44,320 bases of DNA, taken from the NCBI RefSeq assembly GCF_004010195.1, contig NC_057756.1, positions 9,468,923 to 9,513,242 of the forward strand. The letters are read 5' to 3'. Origin of the DNA: Chiloscyllium plagiosum (lineage: Eukaryota). This document shows, piece after piece, positions 1-42,930 of the stretch (position 1 is its first letter; each line of letters opens with the position of its first letter). A program made the position numbers and the translations under genes. A model generated the notes under the pieces. It saw only the letters and a program-made list of their open reading frames with translations. It did no database searches and had not been told where the DNA came from.

Positions 1-192
1 CTCACCTTAACCTCCTTCCACCTATCGTATTCCCAGCGCCCCTCCCCCAAGTCCCTCCTCCCTACCTTTTATCTTAGCCTGCTTGGCACACCCTCCTCAT
101 TCCTGAAGAAGGGCTTATGCCCGAAACATCGATTCTCCTGCTCCTTTGATGCTGTCTGACCTGCTGCGCTTTTCCAGCAACACATTTTTAAG
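1..192 (+). mobile_element. Penelope-like element terminus (family A) with minimal hammerhead core
   Basis: CTGAAGA-a-GGGC-ttat-GCCC-GAAA-c-ATC at 103-130; same family recurs at 1349-1437, 3726-3805 and 8689-8980. Confidence 0.7.
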
Positions 193-549
193 TTCCTCAT
201 CACAGCCCACTTTTCCTACCCTCTCATCATAACCCTTAATGCCCTGACTGATCCCCAAAATCTCAGCTTTAAATATGTACAAGGAGCCTGCCCCCACAAC
301 TCTCGGTGGTAAGGAGTTCCCTCCTCACCTCAGTCTTAACGATTCTCCTGCTCCTTTGATGCTGTCTGACCTGCTGCGCTTTTCCAGCAACACATTTTTA
401 AGTTCCTCATCACAGCCCACTTTTCCTACCCTCTCATCATAACCCTTAATGCCCTGACTGATCCCCAAAATCTCAGCTTTAAATATGTACAAGGAGCCTG
501 CCCCCACAACTCTCGGTGGTAAGGAGTTCCCTCCTCACCTCAGTCTTAA
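130..549. repeat. 2 x 210 bp tandem duplication
   Basis: 130-339 reads identical to 340-549. Confidence 0.9.
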
Positions 550-744
550 ATTGACACTCCTTTATTCTGAGTCCTCGACTCTCCCATGAGGGGAAATGCC
601 CTCTCAGTATTCACCCTGTTAAGAATCCGATATTTTTCAAGGTACCTAGAAATCCACAAGTCTGTCTCGAACATATTCAATGGCTTCAAGCTTCCATAGG
701 CCTCTAGAGGATTCGAGAATTCCAAAACCTCACCATCCAGAATT

Positions 745-852
745 TACATTTGTTCCCTTGTGGGTGTGGTTGGCTGGGCCCAGCATTTATTTTCCCTCCT
801 TAGTTGCCCTTTCAGAAGGTGGTGGTGAGCTGCCTTCTTGAACCGCTGTAGC
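745..852 (-). mobile_element. L2/Crack-like LINE 3' end fragment
   Basis: Minus strand LQRFKKAAHHHLLKG plus 3' tail; same family at 4430-4865 and 23200-23562. Confidence 0.6.
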
Positions 853-1227
853 TTACGTGAAGAAATTCTCAACTCTACTGCACCCTTAATATGAGACTGT
901 GTCCTCTGGTTCTGCCCCCTCCCCCCCTCATCAAAGCCAATGAGAAACATCCTTCCCACATCCAGCCTCTCAAGGCCCGTACAATACAATGAGCTCACCT
1001 TTCATTTATCTAATAGCGACGGAATACTGACCTGGTTTACTCAATCTTTCCTCAGGGGACAATTCCAGAGGTCAGTTCTGGTGAAAGGTGGTCATTTCCG
1101 GTGTGATTTCCAAACATGATCCCTGAAACCATAATTCAATCCAGTTTCCGCTGCCCTCTTACCGACCCCCCCCCAAGAACCATCTTCTTAGAACTTTGCA
1201 CATTTTTTTTCCTCTCATCAGATAATT

Positions 1228-1663
1228 TTTTTTTAGATTCCATTCCCTACAGTGTAGAAACAGGCCCTTCGGCCCAACAAGTCCACATCGAGCCTCTGAA
1301 GAGTAACCCACCCAAACCCATTCCCCTAAATTTACCCCTGACTAATGCTTAAAAATGTGTTGCTGGAAAAGCACAGCAGGTCAGGCAGCATCAAAGGAAC
1401 AGGAGAATCGGCGTTTCGGGCATAAGCCCTTCTTCAGCCCTGACCTAATGCACCTAACACTATGGGCAATTTAGCACGGCCAATTCACCCTAACCTGCAC
1501 AACTTTGGACTGTGGGAGGAAACCGGAGCACCCGGAGGAAACCCACGCAGACACGGGGAGACTGTGCAAACTCCACACAGACAGTTGCCTGAGATGGGAA
1601 TTGAACCTGGGTCCCTGGCATTGTGAGGCAGCAGTGCTAACCACTGAGCTACTGTGCCGCCCC
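1228..1663 (-). mobile_element. HE1-type tRNA-derived SINE, interrupted by a mini PLE insertion
   Basis: Minus-strand head GGGCGGCACAGTAGCTCAGTGG (A box) ... GGTTCAATTCC (B box); CR1-type 3' tail near 1232-1290. Confidence 0.85.
1349..1437 (-). mobile_element. 89 bp PLE terminus insertion (family A) with TSD
   Basis: Flanked by ccctgactaatgc (1336-1348) and ccctgacctaatgc (1438-1451); minus strand begins CTGAAGAAGGGCTTATGCCCGAAACGCC. Confidence 0.75.
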
Positions 1664-1961
1664 AATGATCTAATTCCTTGAAGGTCTCAGTGGAAGCTGC
1701 CCATCCTCTCACTCTCAGTCAGTTTATTTCTAGCTCCTAACCACCTGCTACACTGATATTTTTCAAGTGGGTTTTTGCTTCCTCTGCCACTTAGTTGGCA
1801 TGAGTGTGTGCTCACTGGTTCTCTATTCTTCTGCCAATGGGAGATGTTTCTCGCGTGAGTTTGAACACCTTGATTGAACCTCCTTCCAGATGTTTCAGCC
1901 CCAGTTCCTCCAGTCTGTCCAGATAGCTCAAGTCCCTTCGACCTGGAACAAGATCCTTTAG

Positions 1962-3100: not shown

Positions 3101-3275
3101 TTGTTCCTTTTTTCTGCAGTAATACTGAATTTTCTAAAGGGCTTAAAGCCTGAAGCTGTGTTGATGAGAGAGTATCGTGCGGGGCCAGTAGATATCGTTC
3201 TTGGTCGTTCATGGTCTTTCTGGCCTAGAACTTGTGAAGTTTTCCTTCTCTCTCCTCTGCCCCCTCTCCTGTCAG

Positions 3276-3430
3276 TCTACGCCATTCGTGAAGCAGCCAC
3301 CAACAATCTGAAGAAGCTCACCCAGAAGTTCGGCAAGGTCTGGGCTCAGAACACTATCCTCCCCAAGGTGCTGGCTATGTCATCCAATCCCAACTACCTC
3401 CACCGGATGACCACACTCTTCTGCGTCAAT
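3276..3430 (+). CDS. PPP2R1A: PP2A scaffold subunit A, internal coding exon (equivalent to human exon 12; C-terminal HEAT repeats)
   Basis: Polypyrimidine tract plus AG at 3274-3275, donor GTAAGT at 3431; 155 bp; translates (V)[51 protein letters not shown], matching PPP2R1A/B. A versus B paralog assignment is uncertain. Confidence 0.93.
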
Positions 3431-3725
3431 GTAAGTCTCTCACCGTCCGCTGGACTGCCCCCACAGCCCCTCCCTACATCCGCGTTCTTCCCGAGACCCC
3501 CACAGCATGGCGACCTTCACTGCAAAGGAGTCAGGTCACTCCATTTCCTTTTCCAGTCTGTCAAGCCATGTGTCTGATCCAGCACACATGACCCTTCCCC
3601 GACTGCTGCTTGAGTAGAGAGTGACGAGCCACTTTCTTGAACTTCTGCAGTTTATCTGGGCCACATTTGGGCAGAGAGAGAAGAAAGGGAGGTCCGCAGG
3701 ATGCAAGAGAGTGCATAAGCAGTTC

Positions 3726-3805
3726 ACATTCCTGATGAAGGGCTTATGTTTGACACTCCTGCTCCTTGGATGCTGCCTGACCGGCCGTGCTTTTCCAGCA
3801 TCACA
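3726..3805 (+). mobile_element. PLE terminus fragment (family A), hammerhead core decayed
   Basis: CTGATGAAGGGCTTATG followed by ctcctgctccttggatgctgcctgacc..cttttccagca; GAAA lost. Confidence 0.65.
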
Positions 3806-4865: not shown

Positions 4866-4924
4866 AGGAAGGCGAGCTACCTGCTGGCATCCACTAGAAG
4901 GGACCATGGTCCAATGAGTTTCAC

Positions 4925-5868: not shown

Positions 5869-6011
5869 GCTCTGTACGAAGTCTGCGGGAAGGACATCAC
5901 CACCAAGATAATGCTGCCCACCGTCCTGCGGATGGGGAGTGATGCTGTGGCCAATGTGCGTTTCAATGTAGCCAAGACACTACAGAAGATCGGGTCCACC
6001 CTGGATTACAG
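5869..6011 (+). CDS. PPP2R1A: PP2A scaffold subunit A, coding exon (equivalent to human exon 13), GC donor
   Basis: Acceptor ctccAG at 5867-5868; 143 bp; [47 protein letters not shown](S); followed by AG|GCAAGT, in phase with the next exon. Confidence 0.92.
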
Positions 6012-6494: not shown

Positions 6495-8680
6495 ATGGAC
6501 TGTTGATCCAGAATTATTCCTGATTTATTCTGTTTAATATCTATATCCACATATTTAAAAGTCTGACCTCTAATCTGAAACTTCCTTTTAATTTTATCTA
6601 TCGCACAGCATTCAAATGTCTTAGAAACTTTCCATGAAAATATTGCCAACATACATCATAAATATGCCTGCCAGTCTGCCTGTCTCTCGCTGTAATACCA
6701 GTCAGATATTTCTGACTCGGCGATACAATGAATGCAACACACTTTCAACAAGAAGGAGCTAGGTGAGAGGTACCAAACCCTCACTGTGTAGTTCAACCCG
6801 TAAGCACACTTGTTCATGTCCCAGCTTCCCATCTAAATCACCTGCTTCTCTGAAAGTTGTTGAAACTGCAGGACTACAGCTTTTACCTCGATTCGCTTAC
6901 ATTCCCAAGAGGAAAAGAGTGCTAAAAGAATGAAGATTTTTAAGACTGTTTTTCCTACAATAGTGGTAACCACTTTTGATCATCTTGATCACAGAATTTC
7001 TCTTTAAGACCTGAAAGTACAAGTCTGGATTTTGCTTTATATATGTCCCATCAGGAAACACTCTGTCGATACACCTCTACAGCAAGGCTCACACTTTCCT
7101 ATCTTCCAACTTGGATTCTTTCCAGCTGTCCAGTTTTATTGGTTTGCCTTCCTCTATGAAATTACCTTTTACTTTGTTTGTAGCTACCAAAGCTGGAGAG
7201 AGGTGTACGGGGAAGGGGGAGCTGTACCTCAGTCAGAAGGTGGGGCAACTGTACTCAAACTGGGGTGGGGGTGGGCCACTGCCCTCCAGCTGGGAGGACT
7301 GGAGGGCAAGACTGCGATACTCGATGGGAGGTCACTTTGCTGGGGTCACAGTCACCACTGTGGGGTCAGGGTCACTGCTGAGGGGTCAGGGTCACCGCTG
7401 AGGGGTCAGGGTCACAGCTGTGGGATCAGGGTCACCGCTGTGGGGTCAGGGTCACCGCTGAGAGGTCAGGGTCATGGCTGGGGTGGCAGGGTCATGGCTG
7501 TGGGGTCAGGGTCACCGCTGTGGGGTCAGGGTCACGGCTGGGTTGGCAGGGTCATGGCTGTGGGGTTAGGGTCACCACTGTGGGGTCAAGCCACCGCTAT
7601 GGAGTCAGGGTCACGGCTGGGGTGGTAGGGTCATGGCTGTGGGGTCAGGGTCATCGCTGTGGGGTCAGTGTTACCACTGTGGGGTTAGTGTTAAGGCTGT
7701 GGGGTCAGGGTCACTGCTGAGGTAGCAGGTCACAGCTGTGGGGTCAGGGTCACCGCTGAGGGATCAGGGTCACGGCTGTGGGGTCAGGGTCACGGCTGAG
7801 GTGGCAGGTCACAGCTGTGGGGTCAGGGTCACTGCTGTGGGGTCAGGGTCATGGCTGAGGTGGCAGGTCACAGCTGTGGGGTCAGGGTCACTGCTGAAGG
7901 GTCAGAGTCACGGCTGTGCGGTCAGGGTCACCACAGTGGGTTTCATGGTCACTGCTGAGGGGTCAGGGTCACGGTTGTGGGTCCCCGGTTCAGGTCAGAC
8001 TGTAGTGCTCAGATTGAGTGATCGGAGGACGGTAGGATAATAGATTGTGAGTCAGGTGATATACCCTAATTTGCTTCCCCCGTCCTGGTTGAAATGTTAG
8101 GAAATCTGGTGGAAATGGACAAGTTGACCAAAGGGTCTGTCCATACTGTACATCTCTGTGACTCTATGACATGCTGTAAAATTACTTCTAACCTGACCCA
8201 GACTCTTGCCCTCACTTTGTCCTTCTCTCTTATATCATGTATCTGGATTCGACTTTCATTCTGATAGCTTTAAACAACGCTGCCCAGCTCGGCTGATTTA
8301 GTTGGAGGCTTCTGCCTTAGGTGCTGTGAGAGAGTGGAGCTAATTGTATTCCCTTCCCAAATCTGGGAATGGTTGCTCATCCCTGAAGGAATTTTTGGAT
8401 TTCTCCCTAAAGACAATGGTCCGTGTAGAACTGTAGCTCCAAAAGAGTTGCAGTCAAACTTTTGCATGGACTGCCTGTATCAGGGCAGGTATTAATTTAC
8501 ATCTTGGTTCATATTTTACGAGGCAACTCACCTATCACCACATGTTTTCTTTCACATAATAACTAAAGAGACCTTTCCTTGCCACGTTCATTGCCATAAT
8601 GTTCATATTTTGGCACATATCCTCAAATTCATCATTGTCCATTTGCCCCACAATGTCTGTTATGAATTTAGCCAGTACCC
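6495..8680 (-). mobile_element. decayed Ty1/copia LTR retrotransposon pol (integrase about 8200-8680; RT about 6495-7180)
   Basis: Manual minus-strand translation across frameshifts: integrase AKFITDIVGQMDNDEFEDMCQNMNI..., ALIQAVHAK, GRNPKIPS...EGNTISS; RT KAKSRLVLSG, GKTVLKIF...WECKRIEVKAVVLQ, WDMNKCAYGLNYTVRVWYLS, LAGIFMMYVGN (YVDD decayed), FKYVDIDIKQNKSGIILDQ. Integrase before RT is the copia order. Confidence 0.75.
7341..7982. repeat. 20 bp G-rich minisatellite (TGGGGTCAGGGTCACCGCTG), about 30 copies
   Basis: Visible 19-20 bp periodicity, with GGGTCAGGGTCA in most units. Confidence 0.92.
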
Positions 8681-8688: not shown

Positions 8689-8980
8689 GCAGATGCTGGA
8701 GATCAGAGTTGAAGAGTGTGGTGCTGGAAAAGCACAGCAGGTCAGGCAGCATCCGAGGAGCAGGAGAATCAACGTTTCGTGTAAAACCACTTCATCAGCT
8801 CCTCATGAAGAGCTGATGTTGATTCTCCTGGTCCTTGGATGCTGCCTGATCTGCTGTGATGAAGGGCTTATGCCTGAAATGTCGATTTACCTGCTCCTCA
8901 GATGCTGCCTGACCTGCTGTGCTTTTCCAGCATCACACACTCGACTCTGATCTCCAGAATCAGCAGTCCTCACTTCCTCC
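8689..8980. mobile_element. inverted pair of PLE termini (family A) with hammerhead cores
   Basis: 8689-8798 (-) versus 8856-8980 (+); intact minus core CTGATGA-A-GTGG-TTTT-ACAC-GAAA-CG-TT at 8771-8798. Confidence 0.75.
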
Positions 8981-9409: not shown

Positions 9410-10545
9410 GAATCTCGACAGCATGGAAGCGGGCCATTTAGTCCATCATGTTTGCACTGCCCCTCCGAAGACCACCCAACCCAGACCCTGTCCCTGTAAC
9501 CCTGTACCTCCTGTGGCTAAACTGCAAAATTTACACATCGCTGGGCACTATGGATAACTTAGCATGGCCAATCCACCCTAACCTACACGTCCCTGGACAC
9601 TATGGGACAATATAGCATGGCCAATCCACCATAACCTGCACATCCCTGGACACTATGGGTAACTTACCATGTCCAATCCACCCTCACCTGCACATCCCTG
9701 AGCACTATGGGTAATTTAGCATGGCCAATCCACCCTAACCTGCATATCCCTGGGCACTATGGGACAATTTCCTATGGCCAATCCACCCTAACCTGTACAT
9801 CCCTGGACACTAAGGGTAAGTTAGCATGGCCAATCCACCCTAACCTACACATCCCTGGGCATTATGGGACAATTTAGCATTGCCAATCCACCCTCACCTG
9901 CACACCTGTGGGCACTATGGGTAATTTAGTATGCCCACTCCACACTAACCTACACATTCCCGGACACTATGGGACAATTTAGCATGGCCAATCCACCCTA
10001 ACCTGCACATCCCTGGGCACTCTGGGATAATTTAGCATGGCCAATCTATCCCAATCTGCACATCCCTGGGCACTATGGGTAATTCAGCATGGTCAGTCCA
10101 CCCAACTTAGTTATTCCTGGGCACTGTGGGTAATTTAGCATGGCCAATCCACCCCAATCTGCATATCCCTGGGCACTATGGGTAATTTAGTGTGGTCAAT
10201 CCACCTCAACCTAGTGGGAAACCAGAGCATTCAGAGGAATCCCATGCAGACGTTGGGGGAGGTGGAGGGGGTGGGGGGGGGGGGGGAGGTGGCGGGCAAA
10301 CNNNNNNNNNNNNNNNNNNNNNNNNNNNNNNNNNNNNNNCACTATGGGACAATTTAGCATGGCCAATCCACCCTAACCTGCATATCCCTGGGCACTATGG
10401 GTAACTTACCATGTCCAATCCACCCTAACCTGCATATCCCTGGGCACTATGGGACAATTTCCTATGGCCAGTCCATAGGACAGGGGGGTGACGTGCAAAC
10501 TCCACATAGACAGTGGAGTGTGGAATCGAGTGTGTCCTCTGTGAG
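9410..10545 (-). mobile_element. HE1-type SINE with an internally amplified segment
   Basis: SINE tail at about 9410-9500, body remnants at 10212-10255 and 10480-10540, surrounding a tandem array. Confidence 0.65.
9543..10472. repeat. 52-53 bp minisatellite derived from an HE1 SINE internal segment
   Basis: Unit cactatgggtaatttagcatggccaatccaccctaacctgcacatccctggg, about 15 copies; closely matches 1458-1500 of the intact SINE. Confidence 0.9.
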
Positions 10546-10967: not shown

Positions 10968-11059
10968 CCCGTTACATAACGAAGTGAAGCCAGTGCTCAA
11001 TAAACTGAGCAAGGATCAAGACATCGATGTGAAATACTTTGCCCAGGAAGCATTAATCG
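10968..11059 (+). CDS. PPP2R1A: PP2A scaffold subunit A, coding exon (equivalent to human exon 14)
   Basis: Long pyrimidine tract plus ttcAG; 92 bp; (S)[30 protein letters not shown]; donor GTGAGA at 11060. Confidence 0.93.
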
Positions 11060-11479
11060 GTGAGAGGCCTGGTTAAAAGGGAGGGTGGTGGTGGTGGTGG
11101 GGAAGATTGAAATTGGCCCCGAGGTCCTCCTCCTCCTCCCTGCCTCCCTTGATGGGTGGGGGGGGGTTCCGGGTGTATTGCCCTGAGGAGAGAGGGGGCC
11201 CTGGCTTGCAGTCACGCTGAAACGCTGCCAACATTGCCCGCTCTTGAAGCCAACGCCTGATGTTAGGCCATTGGGTCGCGGGTCCAGGCCAGGCAATGGT
11301 GTTACTGTCTTCAGTGTTACTGTCTTCAGCATGAGCAGGTTTACGCTACCCCCCACCCCAACTCATCCCCCCTCACCCACCACCCTGCAGAGGAATCTAT
11401 CACATCAACTACAGAAGAAGCAAGGTTGGCAAAGGGGGGAGTAGAGTGAGAAGCTGTAAGGGAATATTGAAACCTGATA

Positions 11480-12250: not shown

Positions 12251-12362
12251 GATGGTTCAAGAGTTTACTTCAACAATGCACCCCTGCTTGGCCAGGCTGA
12301 TCTGTTTTTAATCAGACAACACTTCACAAGGCAATGTCTAGTCAATGACAACAGAAAGAAAG

Positions 12363-13440
12363 GAGCGTCGCACTGTCGGAGAGTGAGTGCTGAGGGAGTG
12401 CTGCACTGTCGGAGGGTCAGTGCTGGGGGAGTGGGCACTGTCGGAGGGTCAGTGCTGGGGGAGCGCNNNNNNNNNNNNNNNNNNNNNNNNNNNNNNNNNN
12501 NNNNNNNNNNNNNNNNNNNNNNNNNNNNNNNNNNNNNNNNNNNNNNNNNNNNNNNNNNNNNNNNNNNNNNNNNNNNNNNNNNNNNNNNNNNNNNNNNNNN
12601 NNNNNNNNNNNNNNNNNNNNNNNNNNNNNNNNNNNNNNNNNNNNNNNNNNNNNNNNNNNNNNNNNNNNNNNNNNNNNNNNNNNNNNNNNNNNNNNNNNNN
12701 NNNNNNNNNNNNNNNNNNNNNNNNNNNNNNNNNNNNNNNNNNNNNNNNNNNNNNNNNNNNNNNNNNNNNNNNNNNNNNNNNNNNNNNNNNNNNNNNNNNN
12801 NNNNNNNNNNNNNNNNNNNNNNNNNNNNNNNNNNNNNNNNNNNNNNNNNNNNNNNNNNNNNNNNNNNNNNNNNNNNNNNNNNNNNNNNNNNNNNNNNNNN
12901 NNNNNNNNNNNNNNNNNNNNNNNNNNNNNNNNNNNNNNNNGTGCTGAGGGAGCGCCGCACTGTCGGAGGGTCAGTGCTGAGGGAACGCCGCAATGTCGGA
13001 GGGTCAGTGCTGAGGGAGTGCCGCACTGTCGGAGGGTCAGTGCTGAGAGAGCGTCACACTGTCAGAGGGTCAGTGCTGAGGGAGTGCCGCACTGTCGGAG
13101 GGTCAGTGCTGAGGGAGCGCCGCACTGTCAGAGGGTCAGTGCTGAGAGAGCGTCATACTGTCGGAAGGTCAGTGCTGAGAGAGCGTCACACTGTCGGAGG
13201 GTCAGTGCTGAGGGAGTGCCGCACTGTCGGAGGGTCAATAGTGAGTGAATGCTGCAATGTCGGAGCGTTCATACCAAGGGACTGGTGGATCACCACTACA
13301 GAGGGAGTGCTACACTTTCGAAATGTCATTGCTATCGTTTGGTCTGTGTGCTGTGTGTTGGATAAGACATCGCAATGTCGGAGGGTCAATGCTGAGGGAG
13401 CACTACAGTGTCAAGGGTCAGTGCTGAGGGAACACTGCAG
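12363..13440. repeat. 33 bp minisatellite (GTGCTGAGGGAGTGCCGCACTGTCGGAGGGTCA), spans an N-gap
   Basis: Clear 33 bp period (VLRECRTVGGS repeats in the ORF track); each unit has a CAGTGC/GCACTG inverted pair. Confidence 0.92.
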
Positions 13441-13597
13441 TATCAGAGACATTAACCAGGGGCCATTCTGACCTCTCAATATATTATAATAATCACATGT
13501 CCCACTATTTGAAAGTTTTGCGGATGTGCCCTGATGTCATGGGAAATGTTATGCCTTCACAAGCACCACTGAGATAAAAGATAAACGCAATGTACAA

Positions 13598-14164: not shown

Positions 14165-14395
14165 TCAATTGGGATTTGCCAAAGCCTGATCCACCATCAA
14201 TAAGACACAAGTCAGGAGTGTGATGGAATACTCCCCACTTGCCCCTGGATGGGGGCAACTCCAACAACACTCAAGAAATCCAACACCATCCAGAGACAAA
14301 GCAGCCCCTGCTTGATTGCCACCGTAACCACAAACATCCCCTCCCTCCCCCACCAACGCTCCATAGCAGCAGTGTGTACCATCTACCACAAACTC
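14165..14395 (+). mobile_element. L2/Crack-like LINE RT fragment
   Basis: KTQVRSVMEYSPLA and PTTLKKSNTIQRQ..LI motifs. Confidence 0.6.
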
Positions 14396-14404
14396 ATAAC
14401 CCCT

Positions 14405-14910
14405 CCCCACATAAATACACACACACACCCAGATATAAGTTTGTGGGGTGAATTTGTACTTGCAGAATTATATTTTACTTTGCTCAAAAACTACATGAAT
14501 CCAAGTAAGATTCTGTAAATCACTTTTTTAGAAGTAGAATCAGTCTGAACATTGGGGTACAGACAGCCTCACACAGGGCACCTCTCACCTTCAATGCATT
14601 CTCTGTGACAACATGGCACCTATTGTTAAAGTTCACTTGACATTGTCACTTTTAAGAGAAACTCTGGGATTTGCAGATGAAATAACTGAAGCCAACATGG
14701 TCATTCTAAAAGATGAGAGACTTAACAAACACTCTGGGTCTTTTCCAATATATAATTTTAGTTGCACCACACTGTAAACGTTTGCTATAAATTCTGTGTC
14801 CTACGATCTTATACTCAACAACCACTGACGAAGGAGCAGCACTCCTAAAGCTAGTGTTTCCAAATAAACCTGTTGGACTATAACCAGCTGTGGTGTGATT
14901 TTTAACTTTG
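14405..14910 (+). mobile_element. PLE 3' terminus (family B), hammerhead core mutated
   Basis: Homologous to 41575-41856 and 42841-42930; core CTGACGA-AGGAGCAGCACTCC-TAAA-GCTA at 14825. Confidence 0.7.
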
Positions 14911-23562: not shown

Positions 23563-24737
23563 GTTCTTTTTCCCATGGTGGAAAAGTCGAATTTTAGAGG
23601 GAATGAGTTTAAGATATCAAGGGGAACATTTAAATAGGACCTGCAAAGTAACTTTTTGACACAGAGGTGGATGGTGCCAGAGGAAATGGTGGAGGCAGAT
23701 ACAATTACAATATGTAACAGGCATCTAGATGGTTAGATGCATAGGAAGGGTTTAGAGGGTTATGGATCAAATGCTGATGAGAAAGTTTATAGCCTCAAAA
23801 CTTGTCTTTAAACATTTAGACTAAAATGTAATGCTGAATTATAGAACACATTTGCTGCACTAGAAAATAGACAGACAGGAAGGCTAAGAAAAAGTGGGGA
23901 ACTCAAGGAATGCAGAAGATAGGGACATCTGTGCTCACCAAGTGACAACAGGATGCTGTAAGGCAATTAAGAATATTTGCATTAGTTATTGATGAATCTG
24001 TGTAAACAGGATACCAACTGATAACATTCACAGCCATTCCCTTGTGAAATTAATGACAGTGATTCTGACCCTGAAACAAAACTGGGTACTATCAAAAGTC
24101 TTGTAATTCATGGTCAGATCCTGTCAATTATAATGGATTCTCATTACCCCTTGCAAGCGAGGCAGAAACAGAGGGAAAAAAATCTTTGCTGTTACAAGAC
24201 CCTGACTTGAGAGTTCAAAAGGACACTAGAGAGAGAAACCATTTTATTGCTGAGGTTGCTGAAGCCAGCAGAAAATTAACTCTTAGTGCTTACCGGCTAT
24301 GGATTGAATTTAATTGCATTTTGGGACTTTATGATGATATTGAGTAGCCATTACCGGTTATTAAATACAAACTCTGTAAAAGATAACATTGATGAAGCTT
24401 TAAATTACTTGCTGTTCTTGCAGACCACTCTACAGACTTTGCAATCTGCCCCCCTGTCAATTCGAACTAATCAGATCTTATGTCTTATTTGAATTTGAAT
24501 CACAACCCCGAAAATAAAGCATGTTTAATTTGAAGACTAATGCATCAGTTTAAATGCAACCTTATGGTAACATCTCAGCCTCAGGTACAGAATAATGCAG
24601 TGCTTAAAAAGCAGGAATCTGCTCCTAGCTTAGAAATTATTCTAGGCCTAAAATTGAAAATGTTCTGGCACAATGTGTCAGGAAGCCATTTTATGGTCAA
24701 AAGTTTGTCCTCCTTGCTAAGAAGCCATTTTGTAAAT

Positions 24738-27186: not shown

Positions 27187-28656
27187 TTGTATCTGACATG
27201 TGAGCTGTGCAAGGTTACCTTGTGAACTCTCCAATTAACTCAGACTGGTAACTCTTTATGATAGTTTATCTCACTAGCAGGTGCCTAACTCGGCTGGGTA
27301 TGTTTTTCCCACCTAATAAATGGCTTAGAGCCCGAAGGAGTGATTAGTCAATTAACGCTTCTTCCTTACAAATTATTGTCTTTCAAGTTATCTGTCTAAT
27401 TAAGAACATGCAATGTTTTTGTAAACTTTTGTATAAAGGAAGCCACTTTGTATCAGTACATAGGAGTAGACTGCTGGGGCTCTTGAAGAGCTGTGTACCC
27501 CATTCTCCTGGGTTATTAGAACCTAATTAGTTTAGATTATAGGTATCAGTGTTATGTTGTAACAGTGATGCTATTAGTAAATAAAGGGGCTGACTAAAAT
27601 TAAACTAATCTGTCTGTAAGAGGTTTTTTATTAAAAGAATACGATCTCTGGGATGAACCCAGAGAGAGGCTTACAGGTGAGTCCATAAGGGATTCCCTGG
27701 GCCGTCTCAAATCTCTACTTTAACACTGGAAAATGGGACAAGGTCAGATTGGGATGTTTGAATGAGTTGGACTGAAGGGTCTGTATGACTCAATGAGAAC
27801 CAGTCACACAGTTGTCTGCAGGCTAAAGACTAATCCACAGGTCAATCAATGTCATGTTGCCATCCAGCTGTATCTATACACAACTCTTCGGCTCCACTTC
27901 ATTTACAACCCAAACTTCAATGACTGTTTGTTCAAACAGCCATGAGTGTCAGGTTACTCACTTTTCAAAACACTCAGTGATCCTTTAAAACACTGGTCTT
28001 AAATAGTTCTTTCTCAAAAATCATTGAATTAACAAGATCAGTCTTTAAAGACTGAATATATGAATTTGAAATATTTGAGTACTGTTTAATATGCAATACC
28101 TGATCGATAATTTCTCTCTCCACACTCCTCTTACTAGAGGACGCTTTTAGCTCTCAAAATTAACATAGGCAGCAATCCTATTTCAGTATAGAGATGACTG
28201 TGAATTGTAGTTCCAAAATAAATTTCTAGATGGTTAATTGAGAATCTTCCTTCTGCCTTTTGCAGCAGAGTAACAAGTGCGGCAAAGTGAGTACCATTCT
28301 TGACCTCATTGCAATGGTGCATTTCCCATTGCTGATTTTCTTCAATAGTGGATCAGTAAGTACCCTGGAATTTATGCACATTTTTTTCTTAACCAAAATA
28401 AAACCTTGTACAACAGTAAATGAGCAGGGGATCATTCATTAAAAATATCCAGGGCAGAGAATTCATAATATCGGGGGATTTTCATGGCACCAGTAGATCC
28501 GTACAAAATAAAAGCTGTGTACAGTAACTGTAGTGAATGTGAGAAAAGTTTCAGCCACAGGACCAGTACATGCATCAGTGGATCAACATAGGAGAGAGGC
28601 TATATGATGCAAGGAAAGTGCAAGGAGTTTCACATAGCAAAGGAACTTCATAGTAA

Positions 28657-28851
<195 letters not shown>

Positions 28852-29089
28852 TAAATGTACTGAATGTGGAAAGTATTTTACAGAGTCAAGGGGCCTTCAT
28901 AATCATCAGCAGGCACACACAGGAGAGAGGCCATACAAACGTATTCAGTGTCAGGGAGCATCCCTGAACATTGGCAGACCCAAACATGGGATAGACCGTA
29001 TAAGTATGCTGACTGTGGAAAGTATTTCACAGTATCAGGGAGCATCCATTAACACAAGCGGACTCAAACATGGGATAGACCATATAAAT

Positions 29090-30659
29090 TGCTGTGGTTC
29101 TGTTGGCCGAGCTGGAAGTTTTTGTTGCAAACGTTTCGTCCCCTGGCTAGGCGACATCATCAGTGCTTGGGAGCCTCCTGCGAAGCGCTTCTTTGATGTT
29201 TCCTCCGGTGTTTATAGTGGTCTGTCCCTGCCGCTTCCGGTTGCCAGTTTCGGTGTCCGCTGTAGTGGTTGGTATATTGGGTCCAGGTCGATGTGTTTGT
29301 TGATGGAGTTTGTGGATGAATGCCATGCCTCTAGGAATTCCCTGGCTGTTCTCTGTCTGGCTTGCCCTATGATAAGTAGTGTGGTCCCAGTCGAATTCAT
29401 GTTGCTTGTTGTCTGCATGTATGGCTACTAAGGATAGCTGGTCGTGTCGTTTCATGGCTAGTTGATGTTCATGGATGCGGATCGTTAGCTGTCTTCCTGT
29501 TTGTCCTATATAGTGTTCTGTGCAGTCCTTGCATGGNNNNNNNNNNNNNNNNNNNNNNNNNNNNNNNNNNNNNNNNNNNNNNNNNNNNNNNNNNNNNNNN
29601 NNNNNNNNNNNNNNNNNNNNNNNNNNNNNNNNNNNNNNNNNNNNNNNNNNNNNNNNNNNNNNNNNNNNNNNNNNNNNNNNNNNNNNNNNNNNNNNNNNNN
29701 NNNNNNNNNNNNNNNNNNNNNNNNNNNNNNNNNNNNNNNNNNNNNNNNNNNNNNNNNNNNNNNNNNNNNNNNNNNNNNNNNNNNNNNNNNNNNNNNNNNN
29801 NNNNNNNNNNNNNNNNNNNNNNNNNNNNNNNNNNNNNNNNNNNNNNNNNNNNNNNNNNNNNNNNNNNNNNNNNNNNNNNNNNNNNNNNNNNNNNNNNNNN
29901 NNNNNNNNNNNNNNNNNNNNNNNNNNNNNNNNNNNNNNNNNNNNNNNNNNNNNNNNNNNNNNNNNNNNNNNNNNNNNNNNNNNNNNNNNNNNNNNNNNNN
30001 NNNNNNNNNNNNNNNNNNNNNNNNNNNNNNNNNNNNNNNNNNNNNNNNNNNNNNNNNNNNNNNNNNNNNNNNNNNNNNNNNNNNNNNNNNNNNNNNNNNN
30101 NNNNNNNNNNNNNNNNNNNNNNNNNNNNNNNNNNNNNNNNNNNNNNNNNNNNNNNNNNNNNNNNNNNNNNNNNNNNNNNNNNNNNNNNNNNNNNNNNNNN
30201 NNNNNNNNNNNNNNNNNNNNNNNNNNNNNNNNNNNNNNNNNNNNNNNNNNNNNNNNNNNNNNNNNNNNNNNNNNNNNNNNNNNNNNNNNNNNNNNNNNNN
30301 NNNNNNNNNNNNNNNNNNNNNNNNNNNNNNNNNNNNNNNNNNNNNNNNNNNNNNNNNNNNNNNNNNNNNNNNNNNNNNNNNNNNNNNNNNNNNNNNNNNN
30401 NNNNNNNNNNNNNNNNNNNNNNNTTGCTCATTTTGGGTATCGGGTCCTTCGTTCTGGTGAGTTGTTGTCTGAGCATGGCTGTTGGTTTGTGTGCCGTTAA
30501 TGAACACCGGAGGAAACATCAAAGAAGCGCTTCGCAGGAGGCTCCCAAGCACTGATGATGTCGCCTAGCCAGGGGACGAAACGTTTGCAACAAAAACTTC
30601 CAGCTCAGCGAACAGAACCACAGCAACGAGCACCCGAGTTACAAATCTTCGCACAAACG
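29090..30659 (-). mobile_element. Penelope-like retroelement (GIY-YIG), 5'-truncated, inverted pLTRs, 33 nt tail, 14 bp TSD
   Basis: Minus strand PCKDCTEHYIGQTGRQLTIRIHEHQ...[21 protein letters not shown]; 124 bp inverted repeats 29089-29212 / 30503-30626; TSD tagaccatataaat 29076-29089 / 30660-30673. Confidence 0.9.
30549..30588 (+). ncRNA. minimal type I hammerhead ribozyme (PLE family C); identical copy on the minus strand at 29127-29166
   Basis: gca-CTGATGA-t-GTCgCCT-agcc-AGGgGAC-GAAA-CG-TT-tgc: stem I gca/tgc, stem II, palindromic AACGTT stem III, GUU cleavage triplet. Confidence 0.75.
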
Positions 30660-32499
30660 TAGACCATATAAATATACTGACTGTGGAAAGTATTTCACAG
30701 TATCAGAGAGCATCCATTAACACAAGCGGACCCAAACATGGGATAGACCGTATAAATATACTGACTGTGGAAAGTATTTCACAGTGTCAGGGAGTATCCA
30801 TTAACACAAGCGGACTCAAACATGGGATAGACCATATAAATATACTGACTGTGGAAAAAGTTTCACAGTGTCAAGGCAGTTCCACTTACCCTGGCAAATT
30901 TACATGTGAAATAGTCCATATAAATTTACTGAATGCAGAAAGAGTTAAAAATGGAGGACACCACCACTGATCTAGCGAGACCAAACAGGAGAGAAGAATT
31001 AACATACCAAGAGACAGATTTGAGCTTTATTTAGAGAACTTTGCTTCTCTCTTATCAGATGAAAGATCACTCTTGTTTTGTGAAATCCACCATCGGTACA
31101 AGAAAACCTTCAAAGATTCAGCAGCTTTTGTCCTTCACCAGAAAACATTTTCAAACCTATGAAGGGAAAGTATCCAAATAAGAATTTTACTAAAGTTGAA
31201 TATTTCTTTCCATTTGAATGGATTTGAATAGTTGCTATTTATACCAAACATAATGATTACTTACATATTTTGCCATTGATTCCTGATATTTTTGTCAGTA
31301 ATGATGGAATAAATTTCATGATTCCTTACTGCTAGCAAGGGTTGAAGATTTGGTGCAAAGTTGTTCCAGTCTAATGCCAGAACTTCTCTGAAACTGTATC
31401 TTCGGACTGAGTTTCCAAATTGTTTCATCTCATTTAAATGGCAACATCTGTATATTGTGTTTAATCTTCATGACTCTTGTCCCTTCTTTGTCTCAGCTTT
31501 TTAATCTTAACAGTGAAAAATCACTGGTATTGATGCTGTCTCGTTGAAGTCTGGTTACATCTGTATCGGAGAAGTGTTAATCACAAAATATAGTTGTAAA
31601 GTTTAAGAAAGTGTAATAAATCTTTTCAACAGAAGCTCAGTTTGCAAAATAGATGCATTGTAATTTATTTAACACACTCTAGCTTCAACAAAAATGTTTT
31701 AATTTGTATTGTTCCACATTGTATTTGTTATTACCATGCACCAATTTAATCTATAAATATAATTTGTATTTATGTTCAGTATTATTCAAAAATGTTATTA
31801 AAGATGAAAAATGTGATCTGATTGTCAATGAGCAATGAATATAACACTAATGTATTTTATCCTTGAGCAAGCTATATATGGTATTAAAGGGCATTAGATT
31901 GTGCTTTGTAAGTCTGAGCACCTAATAAAGCAATGAGACAGTTGTGTAATAGAGGAGCAGGGAAAGATATACCATCTGAGTCAACTGTAGCCTGGATATA
32001 ACTTAAATTAATGGAGCTGTTTAGGTCAGGCATTTGATTCACGTCCCTTAAGTTTAGTGAAAGTGAACCAAATAAAGTCAGTAATTGACATTAATGCCCA
32101 CCCAATGGATCTTAATTCATCATTCCCCAAATGTAGGCAGTGCGAAGCAAATTGCTAAGCAAAGGAGGTTGTGGACATTAGGGCTCAAAAGAATCAGCTG
32201 GCATGAGCACAAAACCAAGCTGTAAACTTCAACTTGGAAACAATTCAATATGCTAGGTGTGTTCTGCTGTCAATGAGTGCAAAATAACACTGATAGACAT
32301 GCCTGGTGCATTGGCATGTCTGCCAAGGACGAGCAGCACGCAAGTCTAATACAGAACAGATTTTTTTCACTGAATTCACGTCCAATGTTTCCCAGTGTGG
32401 AAATAGTGGACAACACCAAAGGAGAGCTTGTGGTGCTGGATCTTGTAGCTGATTTCTCAACCTCCACTACAGTAAAGGCAGCTGAAACTCATTGAAACT

Positions 32500-32819: not shown

Positions 32820-34855
32820 AGAGTCATCGAGATGTACAGCACGGAAACAGGCCCTTCGGTCCAACCCGTCCATGCCGACCAGATATCCCAACTCAATCTA
32901 GTCCCACCTGCCAGCACCCAGCCTATATCCCTCCAAACCCTTCCTACTCATATACCCATCCAAATGCCTCTTAAATGTTGCAATTGTACCAGCCTCTACC
33001 ACTTCCTCTGGCAGCTCATTCCATACACGTACCACCCTCTGTGTGAAAAAGTTGACCCGTAGGTCTCTTTTATCTCTTTCCCCTCTCACCTTAAACCTAT
33101 GCCCCTCTAGTTCTGGACTGCCCCACCTCAGGGAAAAGACTTTGTCTATTCACCCTATCCATGCCCCTTATAATTTTGTAAACCTCCATAAGGTCACCCC
33201 TCAGCCTCCAACGTTGCAGGGAAAACAACCCCAGCCTGATCAGCCTCTCCCTGTAGCTCAAATCCTCCAACCCTGGCAACATCCTTGTAAATCTTTTCTG
33301 AACCCTTTCAAGTTTCACAACATCTTTCCGATAGGTTGGAGACCAGAATTGCACACAATGTTCCAACAGTGGCCGAACCAATATCCTGTACAGCCGCAAC
33401 ATGACCTCCCAATTCCTGTATCAATACTCTGACCAATAAAAGAAAGCATACCAAATGCCTTCTTCACTATCTTATCTACCAGCGACTCCACTTCCAAGGA
33501 GCTATGAACCTGCACTCCAAGGTCTCTTTGTTCAGCAACACTCCCTAGGACCTTGTCATTAAGTGTATTAGTCCTGGTAAGATTTGCTTTCCCAAAATGC
33601 AACACCTTGCATTTATCTGATTTAAACTCCATCTGCCACTTCTCAGCCCATTGGCCCATCTGGTCCAGATCCTGTTGTAATCTGAGGTAACCTTCTTCAC
33701 TGTCCACCACACCTCCAATTTTGGTGTTATCTGCAAACTTACTAACTGTACCTCTTATAATCACATCCAAATCATTTAAGTAAATGACAAAAAGTAGAGG
33801 ACACAGCACTGATCCTTTTGGCACTCCACTGGTCACAGGCCTCCAGTCCAAAAAAAAACCCTCCACCACCACCCTCTGTCTTCTACCTTTGAGCCAGTTC
33901 TGTAACCAAATAGCTAGTTCTCCCTTTGTTCCATGAGATCTAACATTGCAAGTTTGTTTCTCAAGTTCCCTCTGACTATTGTCTATAATACAATCCCAAT
34001 AAGGTGATCATCCCTTTCTTATTTCTCAGTTCCACCTAAATAACTTCCCTGGATGTATTTCCAGGAATATCCTCCCTCAGCACAGATGTAATGCTATCCC
34101 TTATCAAGAACGTCACTTCCCCACCTCTCTTGCCTCCCTTTCTATCCTTCCTGTACCATTTGTATTCTGGAACATTAAGCTGCCAGTCCTACCCATCCCT
34201 GAGCCATGTTTCTGTAATCGCTATGATATCCCAGTCCCATGTTCCTAACCATGCCCTGAGTTCATCTGCCTTCTCTGTTAGGCCCCTTGCTTTGAAATAA
34301 ATGCAGTTTAATTTATTAGTCCTATCTTGTCCCTGCCTGCCCTGACTCACTTCTGTTCTCAACTGTACCAGTCTCAGATTGACCTCTTTCCTCACTATCT
34401 CCCTGGGTCCCACTCCCCCACCTTACTGGTTTAAATCCTTCTGAGCAGCTCCAGAATATTTCCCAATATATTAGTCCCCTTCCAATTTAGGTGCAATCCG
34501 TCCTTCTTGTACAGGTCACGTCTATCCCAAAAGAGATGCCAATGACCCAAAAATGTGACTCCTTCTCCTATACATCAGCTCCTCAGCCATGCATTCATCT
34601 GCTCTATCCTCCTATTCCTGCCCTCACTAGCTCGTAGCACCGGGAATAATCCAGATATTACTACTCTTGAGGACCTCCTTTTTAAATTCCTGCCCAACTC
34701 TCTGTAATCTCCCTTCAGAATCTCAACCTTTTCCCTTCCTATGTTGTTGGCTCCAATGGGGACAATGACCTCTTGCTGGCCCCTCTCTCCCATGAGAACA
34801 TTCTGCACCCTTTCTGAGACATCCTTGATCCTGGCACCAGGGAAGCAACACACCA
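32820..34855 (-). mobile_element. CR1 (HER1-type) LINE with ORF1 esterase part, endonuclease start, large internal deletion and RT 3' half
   Basis: VCCFPGARIKDV..GANNIG (SGNH ORF1); LNCIYFKARGL..DIIAITETWL (APE); jumps near 33950 to VTSGVPKGSVLCP..FADNTK..RLRGDL; 3' tail at 32820. Confidence 0.9.
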
Positions 34856-38205: not shown

Positions 38206-38229
38206 AATAAATTAAATTTAAAAATTTAA

Positions 38230-39135
38230 ATTGTGGTGCACTAGGAAAATGGGGGTAAATTTTATATTGTACTGCACCGGCAAGATTGGGTAATTTATAT
38301 TGTACTGTGTTGGGAAGATGGGGTAAAATATATTGTCGTGCATTGAGAAGATGGGGTAAATTATGTTGTAGTGCATTGAGAAAATGGATAAATTGTACTC
38401 CATTGGAAAGCTGGGGTAAATTATTATACTGCTTTGGGAAGGTGGGGTAACTTGCATTGGGAAGCTGGGGTAACTTGCATTGTGGCATTGGGAAGGTGGG
38501 GTAACTTGCATTGTGGTGCATTGGGAAGGTGGGGTAATTTGCACTGTGGTGCATTGGAAAGCTGGGGTAATTTGCACTGTGGTGCATTGGGAAGGTGAGG
38601 TAATTTGCACTGGTGCATTGGGAAGGTGAGGTAACTTGCATTGCAGTGCGTTGGGAAGCTGGGGTAACTTGCATTGTGGTGCATTGGGAAGGTGGGGTAA
38701 TTTGCACTGTGGTGCATTGGAAAGCTGGGGTAACTTGCATTGTGGTGCATGGGAAGGTGGGGTAATTTGCATTGTGGCATTGGGAAGGTGGGGTAATTTG
38801 CACTGGTGCATTGGAAAGCTGGGGTAACTTGCATTGCAGTGCGTTGGGAAGCTGGGGTAACTTGCATTGTGGCATTGGGAAGGTGGGGTAATTTGCACTG
38901 TGGTGCATTGGGAAGGTGGGGTAATTTGCACTGTGGTGCTTTGGGAAGGTGGGGTAATTTGGATTGTGGTGCATTGGGAGGGTGTGGTAATTATATCTGG
39001 TTGGCATGGATGAATTGGACTGAAGGGTCCGTTTCCCTGCTGTATATCTCAATATCTATGTCAAATGTCTATGTTGTCGTGTATTGGGAAGATGGATTAA
39101 ATTACATTGTAGTGCATGTGGAGATAGGGTGTGTT
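38230..39135. repeat. 30-33 bp minisatellite (TTGGGAAGGTGGGGTAATTTGCACTGTGGTGCA)
   Basis: Homogeneous core 38430-38975 with diverged flanks; short CR1 tail inserted about 38993-39060. Confidence 0.92.
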
Positions 39136-40005: not shown

Positions 40006-40172
40006 AGAATATAGGTGGACGCCTTGCATTGTATCACCTTGGACAACGCAGTATGCCAATGATTTGCTTAGTAGCACCAATTACAACTTTCATAGCCAAA
40101 CCCTAGAATGGAACTTAAACCTAGAATCTTGTAACTCAGACTGTTAGAAATTGTGCTACAATTATTGGGTCA

Positions 40173-42062
40173 TTATAGATCACGAGACAAATGGAGAAAA
40201 TGGTTAAATTGTGAAATAAAATAATAAACTCAAATTTGCAGATCTCTTGGCTGAGCTTGATCTATGGTGTATTCCTGTGATTCTTGAAGTGACCAATCTG
40301 AATTTGACAATGATGTTTGCTGGGGCATGGGGGGGAGGTGATGCTGAGTCATCCTAAAATGTTGGAGGTTTTCAAGGCGTACAAAGTTAAAAATCACACA
40401 ACACCAGGTCACAGTCCAACAGATTTAATTGGAAACATTAGCTTTCGGGGCACTGCTCCTTCATCAAGTGGTTGTGGCGCTCACAATTGTAAGACACAGT
40501 TTATAGCAAAAGTTTACAGTGTGATGTAACTGAAATTGTACATTGAAAAATACCTTGATTGTTTAATTCACTCATCTGTTTGAATGACCATGTTAGTCTC
40601 ACTACCTCCATATGCAAATCACAAAGCTTTTTAAAAAAAGTTACATTCTCAGGTTAACTTTCACAATTGGTTAGGTAAAAATAATGACTGCAGATGCTGG
40701 AAACCAGATTCTGGATTAGTGGTGCTGGAAGAGCACAGCAATNNNNNNNNNNNNNNNNNNNNNNNNNNNNNNNNNNNNNNNNNNNNNNNNNNNNNNNNNN
40801 NNNNNNNNNNNNNNNNNNNNNNNNNNNNNNNNNNNNNNNNNNNNNNNNNNNNNNNNNNNNNNNNNNNNNNNNNNNNNNNNNNNNNNNNNNNNNNNNNNNN
40901 NNNNNNNNNNNNNNNNNNNNNNNNNNNNNNNNNNNNNNNNNNNNNNNNNNNNNNNNNNNNNNNNNNNNNNNNNNNNNNNNNNNNNNNNNNNNNNNNNNNN
41001 NNNNNNNNNNNNNNNNNNNNNNNNNNNNNNNNNNNNNNNNNNNNNNNNNNNNNNNNNNNNNNNNNNNNNNNNNNNNNNNNNNNNNNNNNNNNNNNNNNNN
41101 NNNNNNNNNNNNNNNNNNNNNNNNNNNNNNNNNNNNNNNNNNNNNNNNNNNNNNNNNNNNNNNNNNNNNNNNNNNNNNNNNNNNNNNNNNNNNNNNNNNN
41201 NNNNNNNNNNNNNNNNNNNNNNNNNNNNNNNNNNNNNNNNNNNNNNNNNNNNNNNNNNNNNNNNNNNNNNNNNNNNNNNNNNNNNNNNNNNNNNNNNNNN
41301 NNNNNNNNNNNNNNNNNNNNNNNNNNNNNNNNNNNNNNNNNNNNNNNNNNNNNNNNNNNNNNNNNNNNNNNNNNNNNNNNNNNNNNNNNNNNNNNNNNNN
41401 NNNNNNNNNNNNNNNNACTGTGGGAGGAAACTGGAGCACCCGGAGGAAACCCACGCAGACACGGGGAGAATGTGCAAACTCCACACAGTCAGTCGCCTGA
41501 GTCGGGAATTGAACCCGGGTCTCTGACGCTGTGAGGCAACAGTGCTAACCACTGTGCCACCGTGCCGCCCACAGTTGTTAAAGCTAACCTGAGAATGTAA
41601 CTTTTTTGTGATTTACAAATGAAAGAAGTCAGACTAAGATGGTCATTCTAACAGATGAGAGACTTAACAAACAATCAAGATATTTTTCAATGTATAATTT
41701 CTGTTAATCACACTGTAAACTTTTGCTATAAATTCTGTGTCTCTCACTCTTATACTCCACAACCACCTGATGAAGGAGCAGTGCCCTGAAAGCTAGTGCT
41801 TCCAATTAAACCTGTTGGACTGTGACCTGGTGTTGTGTGATTTTTTTTTTAACTTTGCATACCTTGAAAACCTCCAACATCTTAGGATGACTGAGCATCA
41901 CCCCCCATGCCCCAGCAAACATCATTGTCAAATTCAGATTTGGTCACTTCAAGAATCACAGGAATACACCATAGATCAAGCTCAGCCAAGAGATCTGCAA
42001 AGTTGAGTTTTTATTTGATTTCATTGTTTTAGCACTTCCTCCATTTGTCTCGTGATCTATAA
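40173..42062. repeat. long imperfect inverted repeat (about 490 bp arms) of PLE family B termini plus flank
   Basis: 40173-40668 is the reverse complement of about 41575-42062; hammerhead cores at 40439-40467 (-) and 41767-41795 (+). Confidence 0.85.
41417..41571 (-). mobile_element. HE1-type SINE 5' half (cut by gap)
   Basis: Minus GGGCGGCACGGTGGCACAGTGG...GGTTCAATTCC. Confidence 0.85.
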
Positions 42063-42102
42063 CACCAGAATCTCCAAATCAGTCTTCATTATGGGTATTC
42101 AT

Positions 42103-42445
42103 CATAGGATCCCTACAGTGTGGAAACAAGCCATTTGGCTCAACCAGTCCACACCAACCCTCCAAAGAGTACCCCACCCAGACACATTCCCCTACCCTGT
42201 CACTCGACATCCCCTCTAACTAATGGACCTAGAATACATATCCCTGAACACTGTGGGCAATTCCCCATGTTCAGTTTACCTAACCAGTAAATCTTTGGAC
42301 TGGGAGTAAACCAGAGCACCTGGAGGGAACACATGCAAACACGGGGAAAAAGTGCAACTCCATACAGACAGTTGCCAAAGTTGGAATTGACCCTGAGTCC
42401 TTGGCCTGTGAAGCAGCAGTGCTGACCACCGAACCACCAGGCCAC
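42103..42445 (-). mobile_element. HE1-type SINE, diverged
   Basis: Colinear with 1228-1663; tail atccctacagtgtggaaacaagcc. Confidence 0.8.
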
Positions 42446-42740
42446 TGTTCTGGAGCATCTTCATTGCAAACAGCAACAGATACCTGAAGTGAGATAGTTG
42501 ATGAAAGTTAGCAATGGAATGTTGCACATAGACATAAAAAAGTAAAGAGGGAATGATTCAGAAAAGAGGATAAAAGCTAGACTGCTTTTAGCAATTTGTT
42601 TTATTAGGCTATGGATACGGACTTGTTCACCCCCAATTGTTCTTGAGGTGGCAGTAGTGAGCTGCATTGTTCAACTGCTGCATTTCATATAGTGAGGGTG
42701 CTGTTGGAACAATGAGAGCGAAGCAATCTCCAAATATTGA

Positions 42741-42930
42741 TTCGGAGATGCCGGTGTTGGACTGGGGTGTACAAAGTTAAAAATCACACAACACCAGGTT
42801 ATAGTCCAACAGGTTTAATTGGAAGCACACTAGCTTGTCAATCACCTGATGAAGGAGCTTCGCTCCGAAAGCTAGTGTGCTTCCAATTAAACCTGTTGGA
42901 CTATAACCTGGTGTTGTGTGATTTTTAACT
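42741..42930. mobile_element. 190 bp PLE family B insertion: tail, perfect 62 bp inverted repeat around a hammerhead, 13 bp TSD
   Basis: Arms 42775-42836 / 42869-42930 are exact reverse complements; TSD ctccaaatattga 42728-42740 / 42929-42941. Confidence 0.85.
42843..42877 (+). ncRNA. minimal type I hammerhead ribozyme (PLE family B)
   Basis: cac-CTGATGA-a-GGAGC-ttc-GCTCC-GAAA-GC-TA-gtg: perfect stems I and II, palindromic AGCT in stem III. Confidence 0.75.

Follow-up and report, generated by a model that had tools for sequence, protein, structure and literature searches.

Minimal hammerhead ribozymes are known from the pseudo-long terminal repeats (pLTRs) of Penelope-like elements (PLEs) in fishes and amphibians, with about 4,000 copies in the coelacanth and about 9,000 motifs, counted with a different descriptor, in Xenopus (PMC4209133; this and the other publications are cited for the portions consulted). 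Their role in PLEs has been stated as unclear (PMC8557442). PLE inserts are already known to carry an inverted partner, a tail and a target duplication (PMC3846280, PMC8557442), and it was left open whether their head-to-head palindromes derive from a sense or an antisense template (PMC3846280). In vitro, a PLE from Anolis nicks and extends both target strands, starts reverse transcription at two internal sites, produces a tail, undergoes protein-assisted cleavage and uses uncut RNA as its main substrate (PMC11167929). Here we describe a stretch of 44,320 nucleotides from the shark Chiloscyllium plagiosum (contig NC_057756.1, positions 9,468,923 to 9,513,242; "the window"), in which short repeats of three families, A, B and C, carry hammerhead motifs, together with their relatives elsewhere in the same genome. 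The motif class, and its presence in PLE pLTRs, is already known and the new part is in the 5′ ends of the copies.

We consider it probable that these are minimal type I hammerheads in the pLTRs of three PLE lineages, and that the short copies are reverse transcripts of the first ~90-130 nt of a capped, uncleaved mRNA.

Hammerhead motifs in the termini of Penelope-like elements

Positions are given in window coordinates and minus-strand motifs are named by their high coordinate (an initial annotation of this sequence had named the same motifs by the low one). A strict core was defined as CTGANGA, stem II and GAAA, to which the full descriptor adds the palindromic 4-mer, U-H and stem I. Seven strict cores were found in the window (103+, 1437-, 8798-, 29163-, 30552+, 41767+ and 42846+), compared to a mean of 0.17 and a maximum of 1 in 30 dinucleotide shuffles. 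The initial annotation had counted at least 10 motifs, which these seven bear out in part, but four of the copies that it named have changed cores (GACA and a deletion at 3732, G replacing C3 at 8856, TAAA at 14825 and T replacing C3 at 40467-) and only 3 of the 11 named copies (29163-, 30552+ and 42846+) satisfy the full descriptor. Among the others with an intact core, stem II is weakened in 41767+, the palindrome of 103+ has decayed to ACAU, stem I is absent from 8798- and U16.1 has been lost from 1437-. Neither of the decayed cores that had been placed near 2780- and 13680- could be retained, as the first (2799-) is a chance match with the core letters present and stem II absent, and strict-core and full-descriptor scans of the window found no core near the second. 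The motif at 42843-42877, which had been put forward as an assay construct, is complete, but it is sequestered within a 62-bp perfect hairpin of its context. An Rfam scan of the window matched no hammerhead family at E<=1, which is not unexpected because the motifs lack stem III; Rfam microRNA matches at 42.8 kb were rejected, since they merely mirror the long hairpin there.

Blind samples of the genome (130 x 10 kb, 1,261,500 non-N bases) contained 115 strict motifs compared to 2.4 in shuffles, that is 91 per Mb (bootstrap 74-110), or by extrapolation ~3x10^5 intact cores in 3.56 Gb. One exact family A pattern had 95,913 matches in the genome and its control had 0, so that the initial description of these repeats as very abundant was justified. 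At least two further hammerhead families occur outside the window (loci L108, L113, L116 and L121), with stem II of the GTTACC/GGTGAC type and the GGGTC/GACCC type; they are older and CpG-decayed, and each has a stem I of its own that covaries.

Families A, B and C all extend upstream, in the same orientation, into remnants of GIY-YIG and reverse transcriptase (RT) domains. The extension to PLE RT/GIY-YIG open reading frames (ORFs), proposed initially as a check on whether the repeats are ribozyme-bearing PLE termini, was thus reached in every family, and the reading of the motifs as minimal type I hammerheads in PLE termini is supported at the level of sequence. At loci elsewhere in the genome, families A and B have differing GIY-YIG-like domains and RT motifs upstream. 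Pfam matches were above cut-off for GIY-YIG in family A (E 4.6e-5, with RT motifs in locus L055) and for RVT_1 at two loci of family C (E 8e-9); in family B the RVT_1 match was weak (E 0.02) and the endonuclease (EN) motifs were recognised by eye. The endonuclease pieces of families B and C were unmatched in Pfam, and a PDB search gave only a weak match to a maturase (E 0.07). A CX2-5CxxC linker, which marks Neptune and Nematis elements (PMC8557442), lies between RT and EN in L055 and L064 (family A) and in L053 and L071 (family B), and was not found in the family C locus L094, suggesting that A and B are two Neptune-type lineages and C a Penelope/Poseidon-type one. L094 has a single 413-aa RT+EN frame with its stop codon in loop II of the hammerhead. 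In the window, a frameshifted GIY-YIG-like C-terminus immediately precedes the family C motif, which has relatives in the same genome that are 95-97% identical and contains at A9 an ATG (30558) that opens a frame running through the tail. Family C comprises two young subfamilies (L088-L097), with CTGATGA or CTGAGGA at N7 and with stem II also differing, and both differences fall in the coding stretch that the end of one ORF shares with the start of the next.

The sequences of stem II are as the initial annotation had given them, GGGC/GCCC in family A, GGAGC/GCTCC in B and GTC-CCT/AGG-GAC in C. Stem I, which was not in the search descriptor, has Watson-Crick pairs 1, 2 and 3 in 93, 96 and 56 of the 115 blind motifs, and these pairs differ among lineages A, B, C, C3 and D (189 observed pairings, compared to at most 131 when the 5′ strands were shuffled among motifs). 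Because the copies are related, this covariation counts as about five independent lineages and not as 115. G10.1 follows an extra base in 112/115 blind motifs, and the 15.2-16.2 palindrome, which had been noted initially as a tiny palindromic stem III, is present in 81/115 (ACGU in A and C, AGCU in B), its losses being mostly CpG-type changes. The earlier statement that the stems covary therefore holds between lineages, for stems I and II and the palindromic stem III, but not among the copies within one family. There, an apparently compensatory change in stem II had been singled out at 8798- (then 8771-); the T:A pair is present, but the adjacent pair is broken (G.A). Genome-wide, the same double change was found 5 times, with 468 + 318 = 786 single changes and 95,913 unchanged copies. 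If the changes were independent 1.6 would be expected (p 0.02, before allowing for copy age), and a spread in copy age raises this expectation. Within-family compensation was rejected with 5 double against 786 pair-breaking single mutants, and the double change at 8798- is not evidence of selection. In long copies (36 of family A, 19 of family B) conservation of the core does not exceed that of the tail, and G12, which lies in a CpG, is retained in ~80% of them. Inserted copies decay neutrally, selection having acted on active masters, and the genomic copies look like by-products without sign of host function.

The 5′ ends of the copies and their origin

The 5′ ends were mapped in 231 family A copies from the blind samples, which were tail-anchored and compared with 22 natural long references, gap-adjacent copies being dropped and position 0 being C3. 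Of 119 copies that reach position 0, 82 end at -9..0, and the stop rate per nt is 0.110 at -9..0 compared to 0.011 upstream and 0.008 at +13..37. No excess of ends was seen in family A at the predicted cut site (+28), with 9/34 within +26..30 (rate 0.010, p 0.23). In family B, 28/48 copies end at -14..+2 and 1/63 at +26..30. A cut-site peak of 5′ ends in a first BLAST pass was rejected, as it was gone in the larger multi-reference sample, and an apparent peak at +43/44 was set aside because it coincides with the search anchor. The family A edge falls on TCATTC or TTATTC, which is retained in otherwise divergent sub-lineages, and TTTATCT is found at -35..-37 (31-33 nt upstream of the initiator-like TCATTC) in 23/27 long A copies; family B has TATAAA at about -40.

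At position -5, where long family A copies natively have C or T, short copies often have a G. M-G-ATTCC was found 4,652 times genome-wide in family A and M-A-ATTCC 3,063 times, and with a background ratio of 0.43 this places G before the A at -4 ~3.5-fold over background, whereas the control at -7 (853 versus 1,296, background 0.91) gave 0.7-fold. In the first 20 listed G loci (19 independent) the native upstream sequence is absent and the flanks are unrelated; a partner arm accounts for 3/20 loci in each set, G and A. In L1, copying of the cap is recognised by an additional G at 5′ junctions (PMC11702581). The sharp 5′ edge and the extra G were thus likely left behind when a sense mRNA, still uncleaved, was reverse transcribed up to its cap; the ribozyme would make up the first ~32 nt of this mRNA.

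The anatomy of the insertions was examined in 42 head-to-head A pairs, in which the ~35-nt tail is on one arm in 36, on both in 2 and on neither in 4. Direct repeats of at least 9 nt flank 24/42 of these pairs compared to 5% of mismatched controls. The target duplications vary in length (about 9-19 nt), as do the inner junctions, where microhomologies are common. The window holds two clear cases of target duplication, of 14 nt for the C insert and 13 nt for the B hairpin. Head-to-tail tandems were absent among the window and sampled A copies, which are solo or head-to-head (tandem families were not searched for genome-wide).

A possible, and so far tentative, wider interpretation is that in these Neptune-type PLEs the hammerhead forms the first 32 nt of a capped RNA polymerase II (Pol II) mRNA, with stem I doubling as the initiator. 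Insertions in the tens of thousands would then each be a trace of uncleaved sense RNA that was reverse transcribed as far as the cap, and the ribozyme would be a self-decapping switch, triggered by dimerisation or by protein, which limits the element and does not process the template. In the reading that we consider probable, a Pol II promoter in the pLTR would start transcription about 4 nt upstream of CUGA in family A and about 8 nt upstream in family B, and the mRNA would therefore open with the 5′ strand of stem I. Both target strands would be nicked by the RT-endonuclease, and reverse transcription would begin internally on the RNA, at either of two sites separated by ~35 nt, giving a tail or no tail, and would run to the cap, copying it as an extra base. 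Two complementary DNAs (cDNAs), one from each start site, would then join head to head between the staggered nicks; solo copies would be single cDNAs and long copies would begin in the 3′ pLTR. Cleavage by the ribozyme would require a dimer or the element protein and would affect an RNA fraction that does not become insertions. As a cut at the 5′ hammerhead would take off the capped ~32-nt leader and one at the 3′ hammerhead would divide the ORF from the site where RT starts, the ribozyme would more likely restrain or trim element RNA than make template.

Several observations weigh against the copying of capped, uncleaved RNA. The capped start next to the core is predicted from sequence and the brake role is a conjecture, and the naming of the family A and B boxes as initiator and TATA-like is a motif reading. 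Family A stem I has two firm pairs in most copies, with a Watson-Crick third pair in 15/64, and the hammerhead fold is not the lowest-energy fold of the monomer. In family C there is no 5′ edge at the hammerhead, 1/13 blind copies beginning near the core. The extra G was counted genome-wide in family A only, family B offering few copies, the control at -7 is not clean, since partner arms can contribute an A at that position, and the local-alignment boundaries are uncertain by about 2 nt. An RNA run from a related organism (single-cell polyA) showed no pile-ups of ends, in a library that may not keep 5′ ends; its reads came from both strands and 92% of the matched reads continue into unlike sequence. 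Published minimal PLE hammerheads cleave weakly (PMC4209133), and 8/9 dimers of Xenopus retrozymes were uncut (10.64898/2026.07.22.740005).

The 5′ ends might instead have been set by the ribozyme itself, cleavage generating the linear or circular template RNA for copying, a model proposed for PLEs and retrozymes and stated in PMC4209133. Retention of the motif with covarying stems in at least five lineages would fit this, as would the 8/231 A copies which begin at +28 to +30 and the start, at 130 and adjoining the cut site, of a duplication in the window. However, families A and B lack an excess of ends at the cut site, the majority of copies retain the whole core and end upstream of it, the short copies are not head-to-tail tandems, and core mutants left insertion unaltered in vitro (PMC11167929), so we regard this origin as quite improbable. 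Slightly less so, though still unlikely, is a 5′ edge that marks the point at which RT stalled or primed itself on an antisense template, with the palindromes made by fold-back. Antisense self-priming has been proposed for head-to-head PLE palindromes (PMC3846280), junction microhomologies are frequent, and there is a shoulder of ends within the core and stem II (44 at +1..+12). A stall would however be expected at stem II or 3′ of it, whereas the edge lies 5′ of the core, on the initiator-like motif, whose spacing from the conserved box is fixed across divergent sub-lineages. The added G is specific to its position, and the arms are unlike in the tail, a difference that simple fold-back would not yield.

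It has also to be considered whether some copies serve the host, or whether the inserts are PLE products at all. A HEAT-repeat gene on the + strand occupies the left quarter of the window (exons near 3275-3430, 5870-6011 and 10968-11060, with more exons upstream of the window); from its translation it appears to be PP2A scaffold-like. Five A copies (103+, 1437-, 3732+, 8798- and 8857+) lie between its exons, in agreement with the initial placement of copies in introns of a transcribed gene, although "transcribed" means here only that the exons look intact. At ~90 cores per Mb two sense copies would be expected in many transcripts, and some intronic copies could in principle be co-opted ribozymes which cleave host pre-mRNA. 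Two of the five are antisense, however, and two are sense with a broken core, leaving 103+ as the sole sense intact core, without the palindrome, which does not favour the intronic activity that had been implied. Core sites are kept no better than the tail, the catalytic G12, at a CpG, is lost in about 1/5 of long copies, and in host transcripts paired arms are predicted by folding to form long hairpins which bury the motif; dimerisation within one RNA of the two hammerheads of a pair is impossible because they are on opposite strands. Co-option is thus very improbable. Even less credible is that the palindromic inserts are miniature inverted-repeat transposable elements (MITEs), that is DNA transposons, with an incidental hammerhead match: they are short and very abundant, with inverted arms and target duplications, but the one-armed tail, the variable duplications and inner junctions, the continuation of the same ends into RT/GIY-YIG frames, and stem I and stem III features that hold beyond the search descriptor largely refute this. 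Copying of capped, uncleaved sense RNA is thus the origin that we prefer for the short copies.

Features of the window

The copies that can be delimited in the window are given in Table 1.

Table 1. Hammerhead-bearing copies and associated repeats in the window; element types are predicted.
Feature	Position	Strand	Remarks
Family A (Neptune-type) pLTR, long copy	1..192	+	Core 103-130, palindrome decayed; short 3′ end, tailless; promoter-like TTTATCT box; initiator-like TCATTC, A at 99
Second copy of family A 3′ end	340..402	+	Within 210-nt tandem duplication
Family A solo short copy	1347..1437	-	Begins at C3; U16.1 lost; sits in another repeat; apparent 13-14 nt target duplication (by eye)
Family A short copy	3727..3805	+	Begins at -5; deletion breaks core
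Family A left arm, head-to-head pair	8689..8798	-	Begins at C3; private stem II double change
Family A right arm, tailed	8857..8980	+	C3 missing; partial third piece 8822-8856
Family B (Neptune-type) 3′ end	14392..14910	+	Hammerhead 14825, G12 changed; TATAAA ~40 nt before core
Family C insertion, left 14-nt target-site duplication	29076..29089	+	
Family C (Penelope/Poseidon-type) arm	29089..29536	-	Complete hammerhead 29163 down to ~29125; tailless; frameshifted C-terminal GIY-YIG remnant; abuts assembly gap
Family C inverted arm, tailed	30500..30659	+	Complete hammerhead 30549-30591; upstream ORF stop codon in loop II; ATG of open frame at 30558
Family C insertion, right 14-nt target-site duplication	30660..30673	+	
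Family B copy	40389..40671	-	Core 40467, C3 -> T
Family B copy	41577..41845	+	Core 41767 intact, weak stem II
Family B palindromic insert	42741..42928	+	Tailed inverted arm 42741-42836, complete hammerhead 42843-42877, short arm; 13-nt target duplication, 42728-42740 / 42929-42941

The tandem duplication at 130-339 / 340-549 is 100% identical, comprises the family A 3′ end and 150 nt of flank, and starts one base before the predicted cut site; it either arose recently or is an artefact of the assembly. Two diverging family B copies (40226-40499 and 41735-42010) share ~170 nt of identical-looking 3′ flank, inverted, across an assembly gap, which suggests an old PLE-linked inverted duplication or 3′ transduction. 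The target of the family C insertion is an array (28600-30930) of 84-nt C2H2 zinc-finger-like repeats that has decayed and contains stops, and the target duplication disrupts the 84-nt register.

Other repeats include long RT-like frames at 24736-26605 (+), which we read as a non-LTR element (one without long terminal repeats), possibly L1/Tx1-like, and two ~1-kb inverted copies resembling a long interspersed nuclear element, 85-92% identical and 15 kb apart (17269-18315 and 32887-33918). Minisatellites were found at 7305-7981 (20 nt), 9485-10483 (52-53), 12362-13445 (33) and 38227-39117 (33), the 52-53-nt unit being derived from a dispersed repeat, resembling a short interspersed nuclear element, that is present also at 1458.

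Comparison with described elements

The ~10^5 young copies of one family are a fossil record of template ends, and as this 5′-end record points to a capped, sense, uncleaved RNA it would give in vivo support to the in vitro result obtained with the Anolis element (PMC11167929). With an exact start site and cut site now named, an open question becomes directly testable. In the literature covered, which took in neither the bulk of the subscription journals nor the supplementary files of the retrozyme preprint (10.64898/2026.07.22.740005), we found no shark report of this abundance and no report of a PLE capped start at the ribozyme or of a PLE extra G.

The motifs share with the published minimal PLE hammerheads the CUGANGA, the extra base before G10.1, the G10.1-C11.1 pair, the short stem I and the palindromic 15.2-16.2, as well as the presence of many consensus families per genome and of mostly single or opposite-strand pairs from truncated PLEs (PMC4209133). 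They differ in number, which here is ~30-fold the Xenopus count (the descriptors differ), and in the 5′ ends, which argue against cleavage making the template; no shark appears in the text parts and two supplement files of that source that were covered. The non-LTR retrozymes are likewise non-coding, PLE-derived and type I, and occur in the single chondrichthyan sampled, but they are head-to-tail tandems whereas the copies here are solo or head-to-head (10.64898/2026.07.22.740005).

Neptune-clade PLEs resemble families A and B in having an RT, a cysteine linker, a C-terminal GIY-YIG, a hammerhead pLTR, an inverted 5′-truncated partner and a 30-40 nt tail, whereas the insertions here are mostly ~90-260 nt copies ending at the hammerhead, the clade being assigned by the linker (PMC8557442). 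An inverted pLTR, a tail, target duplications of 8-10 nt, and TATA and initiator-like motifs in the pLTR are shared with rotifer Penelope pLTRs (PMC3846280) and the D. virilis Penelope promoter (PMC2377424). For the rotifer palindromes an antisense template was favoured, unlike the sense reading here (PMC3846280), and in D. virilis the Penelope start is not at the ribozyme but 46 nt upstream of an intron whose end is at the ribozyme (PMC2377424). The Anolis carolinensis Poseidon element (PAc) is like family C in that its ORF starts at stem II, its GIY-YIG is C-terminal, it has two 3′ ends (tail) and its substrate is uncleaved RNA, the cut site following the ATG by 26 nt in PAc compared to 28 nt in family C (PMC11167929). 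The PAc work was carried out in vitro and with RNA-seq, and the portions consulted describe neither a capped start beside the ribozyme nor an extra G. The strongest 5′-end signal found here is in the Neptune-type families, whereas PAc is a Poseidon element.

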